From positions 1 through 44,081 of the forward strand of contig JABSRP010000053.1 of NCBI GenBank assembly GCA_013215145.1: a stretch of 44,081 nucleotides of DNA. The letters are read 5' to 3'. Source of the stretch: Pseudobacteriovorax sp. (lineage in GTDB: Bacteria > Bdellovibrionota_B > Oligoflexia > Oligoflexales > Oligoflexaceae). Positions within the stretch are counted from its first letter, which is position 1, and each line of letters starts with the position of its first letter. Made by a program: the position numbers and the translations under genes. Positions 8,455 through 24,087 of this stretch are shown here, piece after piece. Below the pieces are notes generated by a model. That model worked only from the letters and a program-made list of their open reading frames with translations, was not told the DNA's origin and did not search any database.

Positions 8455-9747
8455 CTATAGCCAGTGAGGTCTGTAGCATGTATTTTGCGGCGCTAAAATC
8501 TCATTGTCACTGTCATTTCGAATTGTCCCTGTGATACCCCAGTCGTTATTTTTGACCCTCAACTGAGTATCGTCCTTAAGGAATAATGCGATATTTGATT
8601 TCTCCACCCGATTATATAGGAGGCAGGCATTGACTCGTGCCATGAATATGGCTGCTAGATTATAGACATTAGGAGAGGTGCTCGAGATCATATTCTTCTG
8701 GACAGTGATTGCTTTAGGTGTTGACTGAGTCGTACTGTCTGCGGCTGCTGTTAGCTTAATACCAGAGACGTAGTAACGATCTCGCCATGGAAAAATTGCC
8801 TTATCAAGTACACAGTAATTATTTCTTATATATATCTCTTCACTAGTGGCGGGAAGTGTCCCTTTGATACATGTTGATGAGGTTTTGCCTGTGATCCTAT
8901 TGTTCATGATCGTAATACGCCTAAGCTTGAGACCTTCGCCATTGGCACCTCCGTCAGCACCAAAGAAGATTCGAGTGACAGTGGCGTCATTTATCACGTT
9001 CCCATCGATGATGAGATCTTCTGTGATATTGTCGCGAATATCAGAAGTCGCTCCTGAGCGGGAAACCACAGTAATGCCGTTATCGTTGACAAAATCGAGG
9101 TGGTTATTGCGGATCAAGATACGAGATCCTGGTCTACCAACTTTTATACGGCCTCCGTGTGATAGCCGATTGCCCTCTATTAGTATATCTTTTGCTCTCA
9201 AGACAACGATATATTGTCTTTGCTGGGATCTTTCATGACTTTTGCGATTGGTGCTGTCGAAGAATTGATTGTCCCGTATGGTGATATGCTCGGCATGCTT
9301 CATTCTGATGACAGAGGCAAAGTTTTTCTTATCTCCATTCATATCGAATCCACAGTTTTCTATAGTTACCTGCTCTATAGGTCCATCTAGCTGTTTAGCC
9401 TTTACGAAAACCGGGTAACTGGTTCCTTGGGACTTTCTGAAGACTGCTTGAGTGGGGCTACTACAAAATACTGACATATGGCTGTGCAGTTCCAAACTAC
9501 GAGATAAGACGTAAGTCCCGGCTGACACGTAAAGATGTTTCCCATTTTCTCTCGCTGTTTGCAGCCATTGACGGGCACAATTGGTGGCATCTTCCCTAGG
9601 TGTGCCTGAGCAAAAATCTCTAATATCCAGACGGTTAGATGGAATAAATGAGCTTTGATCTCCTACGGTATCGACCCACTGGGGTAACGCAAGCAACTGG
9701 GTCGAAGCCAAAATAAATCCAATAGTTAATAAAGCCTTGGGTTTCAT
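8455..9747 (-). CDS. Secreted right-handed parallel beta-helix repeat protein. It is pectate-lyase-like, and may be a polysaccharide lyase or glycosidase
   Basis: Signal peptide MKPKALLTIGFILASTQLLA. Repeated beta-helix rung motifs are present (IRDNQF, IEGNRL, IRNNHLDF, IIDGNVIND, IMNNRITG, IRNNYC). Confidence 0.7.
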   Translation of the reverse strand: MKPKALLTIGFILASTQLLALPQWVDTVGDQSSFIPSNRLDIRDFCSGTPREDATNCARQWLQTARENGKHLYVSAGTYVLSRSLELHSHMSVFCSSPTQAVFRKSQGTSYPVFVKAKQLDGPIEQVTIENCGFDMNGDKKNFASVIRMKHAEHITIRDNQFFDSTNRKSHERSQQRQYIVVLRAKDILIEGNRLSHGGRIKVGRPGSRILIRNNHLDFVNDNGITVVSRSGATSDIRDNITEDLIIDGNVINDATVTRIFFGADGGANGEGLKLRRITIMNNRITGKTSSTCIKGTLPATSEEIYIRNNYCVLDKAIFPWRDRYYVSGIKLTAAADSTTQSTPKAITVQKNMISSTSPNVYNLAAIFMARVNACLLYNRVEKSNIALFLKDDTQLRVKNNDWGITGTIRNDSDNEILAPQNTCYRPHWL

Positions 9748-9899: not shown

Positions 9900-10934
9900 T
9901 TAGTTTCTACTGAAGAACTCATCAAAGACCTCATCACTCCAGTAAGCGATGCCTTCGGCTTGATTGGGGGAGTGCCATGATTCTTCGGATTTATGGCTTG
10001 GATTGACACAAGCTACGGCTAGAAATAGTAGGCAGAGTGAGGCAAGTAAAAGACTTCGGTTGTTTGGACGTGTGTCTTTGAACGCTTCGATACGACTTCT
10101 CAGTTCACTTTTTCCCAGCTGGTGCCCTACAGTCAGCGGATTTAGCGAACCTTGTAAAAGGAGCTGGCAGTTTAATAGGGTAGCAGCGTATTTCTTACGT
10201 ATTGTTTTGCCCAAGCAAACCTGTCGATCGCAGCTTATTTCCATGGATTTGTTTAGTTGTTTAGCTAGAAAAATCAAAAATGGAGAGAACCATAAAACAC
10301 ACTTTAGTACTTGCATATAGGCATTGAGCTGAATATCTCTCCGTTTAATATGGACATTCTCATGCTCTAGGACTAATGCTAGCCCTTCGTCATCTAAACT
10401 CTTCGTCAGTATTTGAGGAATGAAAATTCTTGGACTAAAGACTCCGTACGACATGGGAGATAGGTTTGATTTATGGGTGTATACTGGGATCCCCTTAAAC
10501 TCGAATGCGCAGTGGGATGAAGCCTCTAGCTGTCGCATACGATTAAGGGCAAATACTAATTTCATTAGTAAGATGGATAGAATAATCGCATAGATTCCCC
10601 AGACGTAGATAAACATGGAGATTGTTGTCGGTTTCACTTCCCTTGACAATAACTTTGGCTCCATGATCTCTTCCATTGTACTAAAGATTAGTGAAGGATG
10701 ATCCTTATTTGGGGTTCTGAAGGTTGGGGTCACAAAATCTTCTGTATCAGCTATTTGAGATATCTTCGATGTTGGGAAATCAAAACTAGGAATAAAAATC
10801 AGCAGAGGTAATGCTAGTAAACTGATTCTCAAGTAATGAAACAAACCATGGGCCGCTACTCTCCCTCGCAAGAAAAACCAACCTACACAAATGAGAAAGG
10901 GATAGATAAAGGCATAAAGGAAAAAAATCATCAA
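9900..10934 (-). CDS. BlaR1/MecR1-type M56 family membrane metalloprotease signal transducer. It lacks the C-terminal beta-lactam sensor domain
   Basis: N-terminal TM helices are followed by the M56 signature SPMSYGVFSPRIFIP…LVLEHENVHIKRRD (an HExxH zinc motif) and MEISCDRQV. After a final TM segment only about 40 residues remain. Confidence 0.85.
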   Translation of the reverse strand: MMIFFLYAFIYPFLICVGWFFLRGRVAAHGLFHYLRISLLALPLLIFIPSFDFPTSKISQIADTEDFVTPTFRTPNKDHPSLIFSTMEEIMEPKLLSREVKPTTISMFIYVWGIYAIILSILLMKLVFALNRMRQLEASSHCAFEFKGIPVYTHKSNLSPMSYGVFSPRIFIPQILTKSLDDEGLALVLEHENVHIKRRDIQLNAYMQVLKCVLWFSPFLIFLAKQLNKSMEISCDRQVCLGKTIRKKYAATLLNCQLLLQGSLNPLTVGHQLGKSELRSRIEAFKDTRPNNRSLLLASLCLLFLAVACVNPSHKSEESWHSPNQAEGIAYWSDEVFDEFFSRN

Positions 10935-11302
10935 TCTAACTCACCTAGAAGTTGACGAATGCGCTCGATTTCATCCGATGAAAGCTTCTGATTCTCGATC
11001 AAATTCAATGCAAGATCAAAAGCCTTCCCCTCATAGACATCTTCAATGAGATTTTCGGCTACAGAATTTTGATAGCTAAGACGGTCAATGCGAGCGGTAA
11101 AACGATGCTCTTTCTCTGAATTGTCCTTTTTTAGATAGTTTTTCTTGACAAGATTATTCACTGCAGTTTGTAGCGAAGTATAGGCAGGAGGCGGATCTAG
11201 CATATTCAAGATATCACGAACACTGGCTCGATCATGATCCCAAAAGAGCTTCATAATTTTTAATTCATGGTCCGTAAGATTTTTATTTATGGGGCGACTC
11301 AT
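10931..11302 (-). CDS. BlaI/MecI/CopY-family winged-helix transcriptional repressor
   Basis: The protein is 123 aa. Its N-terminus LTDHELKIMKLFWDHDRASVRDILNML…YTSLQTAVNNLVKKNYL fits the penicillinase-repressor fold. Its stop overlaps the start of the M56 gene by 4 nt. Confidence 0.8.
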   Translation of the reverse strand: MSRPINKNLTDHELKIMKLFWDHDRASVRDILNMLDPPPAYTSLQTAVNNLVKKNYLKKDNSEKEHRFTARIDRLSYQNSVAENLIEDVYEGKAFDLALNLIENQKLSSDEIERIRQLLGELD

Positions 11303-11344
11303 AGTGAACTCCCTCCGATGCTATATGCTAAAGAAAGCCGGATA

Positions 11345-12208
11345 TTACCGGCTGAAAATTTCGATACTTCCTGCTCCTGTGGAAATATCCACGGGAACCT
11401 TGCCGTTTTTAAGCTTATAGCTTAGGCGTCGATCTACCGACTTGAGGAGCTTTTTGTCTCGATCAAATAATAGAACCTTACCAAACCCAGTAGACGCATC
11501 GAGGGATACGTCAGCAGATGATGGCAACTGAAGCACGATATTACCCCCACCTGTGCGTAAACGTATACCTTTTTTGATAGGTTGATCCATGGAAACATTC
11601 ATAGAACCGCCGCCAGTTTCGGCTTTCAATTCACCAGCCACCTTTTCTAGGTTCATAGAACCGCCGTTGGTAGTGAATTTAAGCTTCCCTTCTGAACGCT
11701 CAGCATGAATAGAGCCTCCATTGGTCTCAACGTCGATATCTCCTGAGACGTCTTCCAGATGGAGCGAGCCACCACGAGACTTAACCACTGCTCTGCCTGA
11801 AATTTTTTCCATGTGAATAGAACCCCCGCGGGTCTCTCCTGCGACATTACCCCTTATATTTTCGATATGCAAAGATCCGCCGGCAGTTCTAATTTTGACT
11901 CCGGAGATTTTGGGGACCTCAAGTTGGTAGCGAACATTACCATTGCCGCCTTTGATCCTGGCACGAATGATGAGTTCTTTGCCTTTAGTGGAACTTTCCA
12001 GCGTAACATTGTCATCTGATACTCCCCAACCAGATACAGTTAATTTAACGTCTTTTCGGTCGCTTCCCTCAATAAAAATTGGTCCAGCATTGGTTTCAAA
12101 GTCAATCACTGGATTGACGGAAACCTTGAAAGTCCTTTCGATATCTTTGCTCAAAGCATTATCTGCGGCAAAAGTAATTAGTACAAAGCTCATCAGTAAT
12201 TTCAGCAT
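11345..12208 (-). CDS. Secreted DUF4097 (toast-rack, putative-adhesin-like) beta-helical repeat protein
   Basis: Signal peptide. A repeated GGS(I/L/M)H(M/L/A)E…(I/V)SG unit (GGSLHIENIRG, GGSIHMEKISG, GGSLHLEDVSG, GGSIHAERSEG, GGSMNLEKVAG) is typical of DUF4097. It is the first gene of the operon shared with the BlaI and M56 genes. Confidence 0.65.
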   Translation of the reverse strand: MLKLLMSFVLITFAADNALSKDIERTFKVSVNPVIDFETNAGPIFIEGSDRKDVKLTVSGWGVSDDNVTLESSTKGKELIIRARIKGGNGNVRYQLEVPKISGVKIRTAGGSLHIENIRGNVAGETRGGSIHMEKISGRAVVKSRGGSLHLEDVSGDIDVETNGGSIHAERSEGKLKFTTNGGSMNLEKVAGELKAETGGGSMNVSMDQPIKKGIRLRTGGGNIVLQLPSSADVSLDASTGFGKVLLFDRDKKLLKSVDRRLSYKLKNGKVPVDISTGAGSIEIFSR

Positions 12209-12237
12209 GTCATCCTCGATGGTTTAGTCGGATAAAT

Positions 12238-12282
12238 CTCCTAGTTAACTAGTAGGTTGACTATCTACTAGTTAACTAGGAG
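12238..12282. promoter_or_regulatory. Perfect 18-bp inverted repeat with a 9-bp spacer (CTCCTAGTTAACTAGTAG-GTTGACTAT-CTACTAGTTAACTAGGAG). It is a candidate operator for the BlaI-family repressor
   Basis: Verified base by base. It lies 30-74 bp upstream of the DUF4097-blaI-M56 operon start at 12208, in the divergent promoter region shared with the alcohol dehydrogenase gene. Each arm contains the self-palindrome CTAGTTAACTAG. Confidence 0.5.
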
Positions 12283-12454
12283 ATGTCAAGCGATAATGCC
12301 TATACGCAGATTCCAGTCGTTGAGTTGTTTCTTATGCATCTCCATGTTTCATCTTTTTCTCCGTGGAATATGGTTAAAATGAAAGTCCCCACCCATTTTT
12401 TTAGGGTGATGACTTGTGACCTTGAACTTACTACCCCCTGTTTAGGAGACCCCC

Positions 12455-13600
12455 ATGAATAACTTTACGTACTATAACCCTGTCAAAATTGCATTTGGTT
12501 CGGGATCAATAGCACAGGTAGCGGATCTCATACCCTCTGATGTTGCGGTCATGATTCTCTATGGTGGTGGCAGTATTAAAAAGAATGGAGTTTACGATCA
12601 GGTCGTCTCAGCGCTCAAAAATCATCGTTGTGTTGAGTTTTCTGGTATCGAGGCGAATCCTACTTATGAAACTCTTATGCAGGCCGTAGAAAAAGCGCGA
12701 GCAGAAAATATCGGCTACCTATTGGCAGTGGGAGGCGGTTCGGTTCTGGATGGGACCAAGTTTGTAGCCGCAGCTATACCTTACAAGGGAGATGCCTGGG
12801 ATATTCCCATGAGTCAGGCAAAAATCGATTCGGCAGTTCCTCTTGGGGCTGTATTGACACTTTCTGCAACAGGTTCAGAGATGAATTGCTTTTCAGTGGT
12901 TTCTCATAAGGAAAAGAAGTTAAAGAAAGGTTGGGCTAACGAGAAGGTCTATCCACAATTTTCGGTTTTAGACCCTAAGGTTACCTATTCCCTCCCGGAT
13001 CGGCAGGTTCTAAATGGAGTTGTAGATCCCTTTGTTCATGTCACGGAGCAATATCTTACTTATCCCAGTCAGGCTATGGTCCAAGATAATTTTTCCGAGG
13101 GTGTGCTTCGCACATTAATCCATTATGGACCTAGAGCTCTTTCAGAAAAAGAAAACTATGAAGTGCGTTCAAATCTTATGTGGGCAGCGTCCAATGCCCT
13201 CAATGGACTCATTGGTAGTGGAGTCCCTCAAGACTGGGCCACTCATATGATTGGACATGAGCTTACTGTATTATATGGACTCGATCATGCGCAAACCCTT
13301 GCAGTGGTATTGCCAAGCTTGCTTAGATACAAAGTCGATAAGAAGGAGGAAAAGCTAGCTCAGTTTGCTGAGGCCGTTTGGAACATTAAAGATGGATCTC
13401 CACGTGAAAAGGCGCTTGGTGCTATTGATCGAACAGAACAATTCTTTAGAGATGTTGGGGTAAAAACCAAGCTTTCGGAATACTCCGTGGCTCAGGATGC
13501 TCCACAAGTAGTTGCCTCTCGACTGGACTCAGCAGCTTTAGGGGAGCACCGCGACATTAAGCGAGACGATATAGAGGCCATATTAAAAATGGCATTTTAA
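12455..13600 (+). CDS. Iron-containing (group III) alcohol dehydrogenase, YqhD or butanol-dehydrogenase-like
   Basis: The GGGSVLDGTKFVAAA NAD(P)-binding motif and conserved His-rich metal-site regions are present over a 381-aa length. AGGAGA lies 6 nt upstream of the ATG. Confidence 0.85.
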   Translation: MNNFTYYNPVKIAFGSGSIAQVADLIPSDVAVMILYGGGSIKKNGVYDQVVSALKNHRCVEFSGIEANPTYETLMQAVEKARAENIGYLLAVGGGSVLDGTKFVAAAIPYKGDAWDIPMSQAKIDSAVPLGAVLTLSATGSEMNCFSVVSHKEKKLKKGWANEKVYPQFSVLDPKVTYSLPDRQVLNGVVDPFVHVTEQYLTYPSQAMVQDNFSEGVLRTLIHYGPRALSEKENYEVRSNLMWAASNALNGLIGSGVPQDWATHMIGHELTVLYGLDHAQTLAVVLPSLLRYKVDKKEEKLAQFAEAVWNIKDGSPREKALGAIDRTEQFFRDVGVKTKLSEYSVAQDAPQVVASRLDSAALGEHRDIKRDDIEAILKMAF

Positions 13601-23017: not shown

Positions 23018-23259
23018 AATGGCTAAGCAATACGCCATAACGGCTATTTGGTCTGAGTGAATCTAACTCCTGCAATAGTTTTCATTTACAGTATCAGCAA
23101 TTTACCAGCCTCATGGGTTTGAGGCTTCTGTTGTCCAAGCACGACAAAATCCAAAAAGACAGCAAATTGATTGCAATAAATTAGCTTTAGGGGGGTCCTT
23201 GACGAAAAGGGCTCTCGTTAACGAGCTTTGTTTCTTTTCATTAAGATAAGGAATAGGTC

Positions 23260-24087
23260 ATGAGTTTTGATCAAGAGGCCTGTTTTCAAAATCTATCTTT
23301 AGTGTTTCGTCGATATCGCGGTTCTGGAGATAGTTTTGTCATAAATAATATTTTGTCAGAAGACGAAACGGATAAATCCGAAATTTTTTTTGACGATCAA
23401 TTTCTACAAAAAAGCGATTGCTTGAAAGAGCGTCTACCAAAAATCCTGAAAACTCTATGCGATGATGATTGGTCGGGACCTTCCAGTGCTTGGGAAAAAC
23501 TGTTTCGTTATCTTGTAATATTTCGGTTTTATGATTGGTCGATAGAGGAACGAGATGCTGTATTGTCGGCCATTCATCTCTGGATGATTGATCTTGATGA
23601 GAGTGGCGATCATGATACCTACGGGGTGATTTCTGATGCTGCTTTTAACACGGGTTTTGATCAGGTACTTTTTGGTGCTGATGATGAGGAGGGGCCGACT
23701 TGGAAAATTACTTTTCAGCTAAAAAGATCGAAGCTCTATATTCTCCTAAGGAACTTAGTTCCCATGAAACTAAAACAATCTGAGATTTTGATCAACGAGA
23801 GTACAATAAGGGTGCTGAAATGGCATGATTTAAGCGATTTAAAGCAGTTTTTTGAAAGTATCGGTTCAGATTTTCTTTGGATGTACTCTTTTACTGAACT
23901 TAATTTGTCATCCTTGCGATTGAAGAACTGTGAAACTCATGTGTCCGGCGGAAAAAAGCAAATTGAGTTTTCTATTTCACTGCCAAGGCATGAGGATCTT
24001 CAAATATCTACTGCAGTTTTAGAATCTTCGGCTGAGGCACTATGTGCCTCGCTCGAACTAGATGGTTACGAAGTCTTGCATAACTAG
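23260..24087 (+). CDS. Cytoplasmic hypothetical protein (275 aa)
   Basis: Long ORF with a GGAATAGG upstream. No recognisable motifs. Convergent with the amylase gene, with a 4-nt overlap. Confidence 0.45.
   Translation: MSFDQEACFQNLSLVFRRYRGSGDSFVINNILSEDETDKSEIFFDDQFLQKSDCLKERLPKILKTLCDDDWSGPSSAWEKLFRYLVIFRFYDWSIEERDAVLSAIHLWMIDLDESGDHDTYGVISDAAFNTGFDQVLFGADDEEGPTWKITFQLKRSKLYILLRNLVPMKLKQSEILINESTIRVLKWHDLSDLKQFFESIGSDFLWMYSFTELNLSSLRLKNCETHVSGGKKQIEFSISLPRHEDLQISTAVLESSAEALCASLELDGYEVLHN

Follow-up and report, generated by a model that had tools for sequence, protein, structure and literature searches.

A putative double operator upstream of a BlaI-family repressor operon in Pseudobacteriovorax sp. 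(Bdellovibrionota)

Described BlaI/MecI/CopY operators and the Pseudobacteriovorax locus

BlaI and MecI repressors bind dyads of 24-30 bp with the core TACANNTGTA (PMC1935004), and the bla and mec operators of S. aureus and B. licheniformis contain two or three such dyads in a divergent promoter region. In CopY operons there are usually two operators, separated by 24-39 nt (mode 26). Blocking of the -35 element by one and of the polymerase by the other has been proposed, and a parallel with the two operators of BlaI was pointed out by the same authors (PMC7253601). BlaI_0696 of C. thermocellum recognizes GTCTAT inverted repeats 5 nt apart, as determined by DAP-seq and EMSA; a pair of motifs is present at each target (“four protomers”), the regulon is tiny and BlaI_0696 is autoregulated (PMC8457756). 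The scissile bond of BlaI is the Asn-Phe bond N101-F102 (PMC9834060). Sensor-less “atypical BlaIR” pairs have been described in M. tuberculosis (Rv1845c/Rv1846c), M. abscessus and P. aeruginosa (PvmSR) (bioRxiv 10.64898/2026.08.03.742534).

The stretch of DNA analyzed here (the window, 44,081 bp) corresponds to one entire contig from the MAG of a Pseudobacteriovorax sp. (Bdellovibrionota, Oligoflexia), a member of a little-studied lineage of predatory bacteria. It contains a DUF4097-blaI-blaR1 operon divergent from a gene for an Fe-alcohol dehydrogenase (ADH) (Table 1). The repressor matches PF03965 over residues 9-120 (88.6 bits; cut-off, 22.6) and aligns over its full length with BlaI and with MecI (E = 1.5e-10 for MecI). 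Its NCBIfam scores are far under the MecI and BlaI equivalog cut-offs, and its top NCBIfam match, CopY_TcrY, scores 52 bits, below the cut-off of 122. The blaR1 start overlaps the blaI stop codon, and the BlaR1-like protein matches Peptidase_M56 (PF05569) with 116 bits; of the 585 positions in the blaR1 model, it aligns with 108-324 only, in the protease half (64 bits; cut-off, 400). The penicillin-binding sensor domain is absent from this protein, on which Pfam shows no further domain. About 35 residues follow its last hydrophobic segment. The DUF4097 protein resembles LiaG and the C-terminal portion of LiaF, two cell-envelope stress proteins of Bacillota, at scores below threshold.

[quoted passage not shown] Furthermore, the divergent promoter region contains palindromic boxes of about 18 bp, with 4-2-4 half-sites and the outer CTA...TAG of the mecA operator. 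Unlike bla and mec, the boxes have GT/AC inner bases, R50 of B. licheniformis BlaI is replaced by Asn in the window repressor, which also has a two-residue deletion ahead of the recognition helix, the BlaR1-like protein has no sensor domain, the locus lacks beta-lactamase and PBP genes, and DUF4097 leads the operon.

The operators of C. thermocellum BlaI_0696 and BlaI_1845 are similar to those of the window in being repressor-specific, non-TACA boxes, in having two dyad motifs per promoter and in serving a regulon that regulates itself and has very few members (blaI, blaR1 and hypothetical genes) (PMC8457756). They differ in sequence (GTCTAT-N5-ATAGAC versus TAGT-N2-ACTA here) and in phylum (Bacillota versus Bdellovibrionota), and the C. 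thermocellum sites are experimentally verified, whereas the window boxes are predicted from sequence. The CopY/CopR cop-box (RNYKACANNYGTMRNY) also occurs as two identical operators, with a mode of 26 nt versus 27 bp here, and the proposed model is the same, with one box blocking the -35 element or sigma factor and the other blocking the polymerase (PMC7253601). Unlike CopY, the window repressor has no cysteine in its 123 aa, and hence no CxC metal site, and the core bases differ; genes for a copper ATPase or chaperone are missing from the locus. With the atypical BlaIR pairs, the locus shares an M56 protease without a beta-lactam sensor, paired with a BlaI-like repressor, although the organism and target genes are different and sequence identity is only distant. 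The two-box design of BlaI-family operators is already known, and the novelty most likely lies in a lineage-specific core within a sensor-less BlaIR module, which leaves the understanding of the BlaI/MecI/CopY regulator class unchanged.

Table 1. Coordinates of the inverted repeat, predicted promoter elements and neighboring genes in the window
Feature	Coordinates	Strand	Description
Whole element	12236..12284	.	Perfect inverted repeat, 20-nt arms, 9-nt spacer, 49 bp
Box 1, promoter proximal	12238..12255	.	18-bp near-palindrome CTCCTAGTTAACTAGTAG, core TAGT-TA-ACTA
Box 2, promoter distal	12265..12282	.	Same 18-mer, opposite strand
Predicted -35, TTGACA	12284..12289	-	Consensus match only; just outside the 18-N9-18 dyad
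Predicted -10, GATAGT	12260..12265	-	Made up of bases of the 9-nt spacer and one base, the first, of box 2
Shine-Dalgarno, GAGGA	12213..12217	-	4 nt upstream of the DUF4097 ATG; read from sequence
Candidate divergent promoter for Fe-ADH, TAGTTA-17-GATAAT	12269..12297	+	Weak; 8/12 matches only
DUF4097 “toastrack” protein	11345..12208	-	Secreted, 287 aa; first gene of the operon; weak LiaG/LiaF C-terminal similarity
BlaI/MecI/CopY-family repressor	10931..11302	-	123 aa, PF03965; presumed binder of the boxes
BlaR1-like M56 metalloprotease	9900..10934	-	343/344 aa; HENVH and EISCD motifs
Fe-alcohol dehydrogenase (ADH)	12455-13600	+	Divergent from DUF4097-blaI-blaR1

Structure of the inverted repeat and its predicted promoter

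The two arms of the element (12236-12255 and 12265-12284) are 100% complementary over 20 nt each, with 9 nt between them, as located by a repeat finder. The perfect 18-bp inverted repeat with N9 described in the initial annotation is present exactly, reading CTCCTAGTTAACTAGTAG at 12238-12255, the spacer GTTGACTAT and CTACTAGTTAACTAGGAG at 12265-12282, and complementarity runs 2 nt further on each side. The distances given there are also correct: the 18-bp dyad is separated by 30-74 bp from the DUF4097 start (12208) and by 173 bp (annotated as about 170 bp) from the divergent ADH start (12455), upstream of both. Among perfect inverted repeats of the 44,081-bp window whose loop is ≤30 nt, this one is the longest, and the second has arms of 10 nt. 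When the window was simulated 40 times with a first-order Markov model, the maximum arm was 9-14 nt. An inverted repeat with 20-nt arms is well outside chance expectation.

Both arms contain the perfect 12-bp palindrome CTAGTTAACTAG, the self-complementary 12-mer already noticed in the initial annotation. Palindromes of 12 bp number 16 in the window versus about 11 expected, and one alone is not rare; the non-random signal is the presence of CTAGTTAACTAG twice, 27 bp apart, within a perfect larger dyad. Since 16 of the 18 positions in each 18-bp arm are symmetric within the arm, a description as two 18-bp palindromic boxes (four half-sites), with centers 27 bp apart, suits the element better than one 18-N9-18 dyad. 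The two-palindrome layout is the requirement of a dimeric winged-helix repressor that binds twice and would not be needed by a hairpin.

The top sigma-70-like match between positions 9700 and 13700 is TTGACA-18-GATAGT on the minus strand, with 10 of 12 consensus positions; its weak points are the GATAGT -10 and the 18-nt spacer, both of which are sub-optimal. Box 2 would occupy the 18-nt gap between the predicted -35 and -10, and box 1 begins 5 nt past the predicted -10 and would therefore lie over the predicted transcription start. The TTGACT proposed in the initial annotation as a -35-like sequence in the spacer does occur there (plus strand, 12257-12262), but no usable -10 is found 16-19 nt downstream. 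It is probably not a plus-strand -35, and the predicted -10, GATAGT, comes from the minus-strand reading of the same spacer.

On the plus strand, the -35 of the weak candidate ADH promoter (Table 1) falls inside box 2, and the same boxes could therefore also repress ADH. Co-repression of ADH via box 2, resembling the behavior of a bla divergon, is speculative. The candidate ADH promoter would give a leader of about 150 nt, in which there is a short stem, CACCC-AUUUUUUUA-GGGUG, at 12390-12408. An Rfam scan of the ADH promoter and leader region (12269-12297, 12390-12408) gave no match.

A search for further copies, proposed in the initial annotation, found the 18-mer, with ≤3 mismatches allowed, at this locus only in the 44-kb contig (0.03 expected). 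The box pattern CTNCTAGTTAACTAGNAG was also scanned in 185,579 species genomes and 241 million metagenome records, with the source MAG outside both collections, and gave 15 matches in genomes and 55 in metagenome records, all single and scattered. None of these 15 plus 55 matches had two boxes together or a box near blaI, blaR1 or DUF4097 homologues. Two GTTAAC-centered palindromes in the window, CTCGTTAACGAG at 23214-23225 and GCGAGTTAACTCGC at 758-771, are 2 mismatches from the box core and were rejected as extra boxes, their number being compatible with chance. The palindrome at 23214-23225 follows TTGACG and precedes a T-run, 35 bp upstream of an open reading frame starting at 23260, and resembles a small stem preceding a T-run.

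Box sequence, recognition helix and distant blaI-blaR1 loci

The boxes do not contain the canonical core TACANNTGTA (or KACANNYGTM) and are not classical bla, mec or cop boxes. Their core, TAGTTAACTA, fits 4 of the 8 specified positions of TACANNTGTA, in agreement with the mismatch to TACA-N2-TGTA noted initially. Nevertheless, the window box (CTA-GT-TA-AC-TAG) and the mecA operator (CTA-CA-TT-TG-TAG; PMC1935004, Table 1) agree in their 4-2-4 layout and in the outer CTA/TAG and differ in the inner dinucleotide of each half-site, which is GT/AC in the window box in place of CA/TG. The “distinct specificity” that the initial annotation attached to the repressor, should the dyad be its operator, is less remarkable than it implied, as the 4-2-4 layout is kept and divergent boxes are already documented in the family.

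In an NMR model of B. licheniformis BlaI, residues T43, Q45, T46, R50 and K54 of helix 3 contact TACA/TGTA (PMC1935004). They align with S43, Q45, T46, N50 and K54 of the window repressor, the recognition helix of which is S43-L-Q-T-A-V-N-N-L-V-K-K54. Asn replaces the base-contacting Arg and is found at position 49 as well. In the set of 150 family representatives nearest to this repressor, T46, L51 and K54 of the helix are nearly fixed, and hypervariability is seen at positions 45, 47, 49 and 50. The alignment suggests that the Arg-to-Asn replacement may be the basis of the altered box. A tentative extension, doubtful at present, is that the TAGT-N2-ACTA box and the Asn49-Asn50 helix might represent an uncharacterised BlaI specificity class (Arg-to-Asn with CA-to-GT), acting as a four-protomer bidirectional switch in which a sensor-less BlaR1/BlaI circuit in Oligoflexia would control a LiaG-like protein, and possibly the Fe-ADH, in response to a non-beta-lactam signal. 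If true, a single Arg-to-Asn helix change accompanied by a CA-to-GT half-site swap would constitute a simple, testable recognition rule.

The repressor has no close homologues other than identical copies. An exact-protein look-up found ten other contigs with an identical repressor, and these are 99.9-100% identical over the region. The nearest other repressor homologue among 1.84 billion representative proteins (HMMER) is only 36-39% identical, and a word-indexed search for homologues (E ≤ 1e-10) yielded no further BlaI. This gap in relatedness rules out phylogenetic footprinting. The top BlaR1 relative (35% identical) is encoded on a 2.4-kb contig that ends before any upstream region. The closest DUF4097 homologues, mostly from Bacteroidota, are found among MacB/FtsX or unrelated genes; none of those checked lies beside blaI, and the gene order of the window is absent from the other loci checked.

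Seven distant blaI-blaR1 loci (L085 to L091) were collected via weak BlaR1 homologues, and their designs, rather than their sequences, were compared with that of the window. Four of the seven have a large inverted repeat of two palindromic boxes beside TTGACA, immediately upstream of blaI: L086 (arms of 21 nt, gap of 4 nt; classical boxes TTACAAATGTAA and TACATTTGTAA), L088 (15 nt, 9 nt; box TACGAAGCGCTTCGT), L090 (17 nt, 10 nt; box GTCTAT-N5-ATAGAC, identical to that of C. thermocellum BlaI_0696 [PMC8457756]) and L087 (12 nt, 26 nt). Two looser boxes, CACAATTGTA and CACGTTTGTA, are present at L085, and L089 and L091 have a single palindrome each. As in the window, one box lies within the -35/-10 spacer in L086, L087 and L090. 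L088 is arranged differently: its first box overlaps the -35, and its second is downstream of that hexamer. The centers of the boxes are 24-27 bp apart in L086, L088 and L090, versus 27 bp in the window.

Recognition helices and boxes also appear to vary together among these loci. L088 and L089 have in common the helix YTTxLKxMQIM and the box TACGA-N6-TCGTA. L087 and L090 share the helix KKSTTYTVLK(R/K)LCEKG and GTYTAY-type boxes (GTTTAC-type or GTCTAT-N5), and the helix SPKTIQT..R of L086 accompanies the classical TACAAATGTA. Within this small sample, the pairing of similar helices with similar boxes is consistent with a separate box for each subfamily. The comparison of helix and box across eight loci suggests that the box tracks helix positions 45-50 across the family. 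Such pairing could feed a recognition code for BlaI-family repressors, minable at scale, and could help to annotate atypical BlaIR systems unrelated to beta-lactams.

Proposed regulation and alternative explanations

The 49-bp element is probably a double operator of the BlaI-family repressor encoded two genes downstream, which would block the promoter and be relieved by proteolysis. The operator reading offered in the initial annotation appears to be the best-supported explanation of the element, given its promoter location, the similar design at four of the seven distant loci and the published two-operator sites. The element is located 30 bp upstream of an operon encoding PF03965 and Peptidase_M56 proteins, that is, in the promoter region of the repressor's own operon, as in autoregulation, and it is consistent with family operators, in which a promoter usually has two boxes, each about 16-30 bp long, at a distance of 24-39 bp. 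It provides a clean, testable operator prediction for an orphan BlaI-family repressor with no relative of >40% identity among the representative proteins searched.

Each 18-bp near-palindrome would be bound by one repressor homodimer, giving up to four protomers on the element. With box 2 in the -35/-10 spacer and box 1 over the transcription start, occupancy would block RNA polymerase and keep DUF4097-blaI-blaR1 off, resulting in negative autoregulation. Beta-lactam acylation is not expected to be the signal, because the BlaR1-like protein has no sensor domain, and a different, envelope-related signal may act on the M56 protease. The protease would then cleave the repressor near N100-L101, leading to dissociation of the dimer and derepression of the operon. 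Box 2 may also mediate co-repression of the divergent Fe-ADH.

The same boxes could instead be the operator of another transcription factor encoded elsewhere, e.g., a regulator of the Fe-ADH, with the BlaI-family protein binding at a different site. Many repressor families use palindromic double sites, the boxes mismatch TACANNTGTA and the weak plus-strand ADH promoter overlaps box 2, all of which would suit such a factor. However, no further regulator gene is adjacent to the element, and the repeat finder detected no other palindrome in the 246-bp intergenic region. The two-box design is, in addition, that of four of the seven other blaI loci and of the BlaI and CopY literature (PMC8457756, PMC7253601), and L086, L087 and L090 have the same placement of a box in the promoter spacer. 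Operation by an unrelated factor is therefore considered unlikely.

A function as nucleic acid structure, either an RNA leader hairpin (attenuator, stabilizer or terminator) or a DNA cruciform or recombination site, is suggested by the perfect 20-bp stem, which is very stable when folded as single-stranded DNA (-18.9 kcal/mol; z = -8.1). It is made very improbable by the surroundings of the stem: a T-run is absent after it on both strands and a terminator scan was silent, the position between divergent gene starts offers no role for a terminator, and the predicted promoter would transcribe only one arm into the operon mRNA. Self-palindromic arms are not required by a hairpin, and Rfam gives only a sub-threshold match to a plant miRNA (17.4 bits versus a gathering score of 60). 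Similarly improbable is an origin as a REP- or MITE-like dispersed palindromic repeat, inserted by chance into the intergenic region. The symmetry of the repeat is perfect and apparently young, as might be expected of such an element, and the copy counts relate to the 44-kb contig and to public collections that leave out the source MAG. Against this origin, the repeat is single copy in 44 kb, the 18-bp box pattern never exceeds one copy per species genome (185,579 genomes) or metagenome record, neither flanking repeats nor a target-site duplication was found around the 49-bp element, and the boxes are in precise register with the -35 and -10 hexamers.

Expression within the operon may be modulated downstream of the putative double operator. 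A small, G+C-rich hairpin, AGCCGG-UAAUAU-CCGGCU (11336-11353, minus strand), spans the DUF4097 stop codon and is followed on its 3' side by UUCUUUAGCA, a T-rich tail, 42 nt ahead of the blaI start; the 71-nt region containing it has a stability like that of shuffled sequence (z = -0.56). As a weak terminator or attenuator, this hairpin could make expression of blaI-blaR1 lower than that of DUF4097. It might also partly insulate blaI from the promoter, which would weaken autoregulation but not the operator reading. At a distance of 152 nt downstream of the BlaR1-like gene and on the same strand, a 430-aa protein with no match in Pfam or NCBIfam is encoded at 8455-9747 (minus strand) and has a signal-peptide-like N-terminus.
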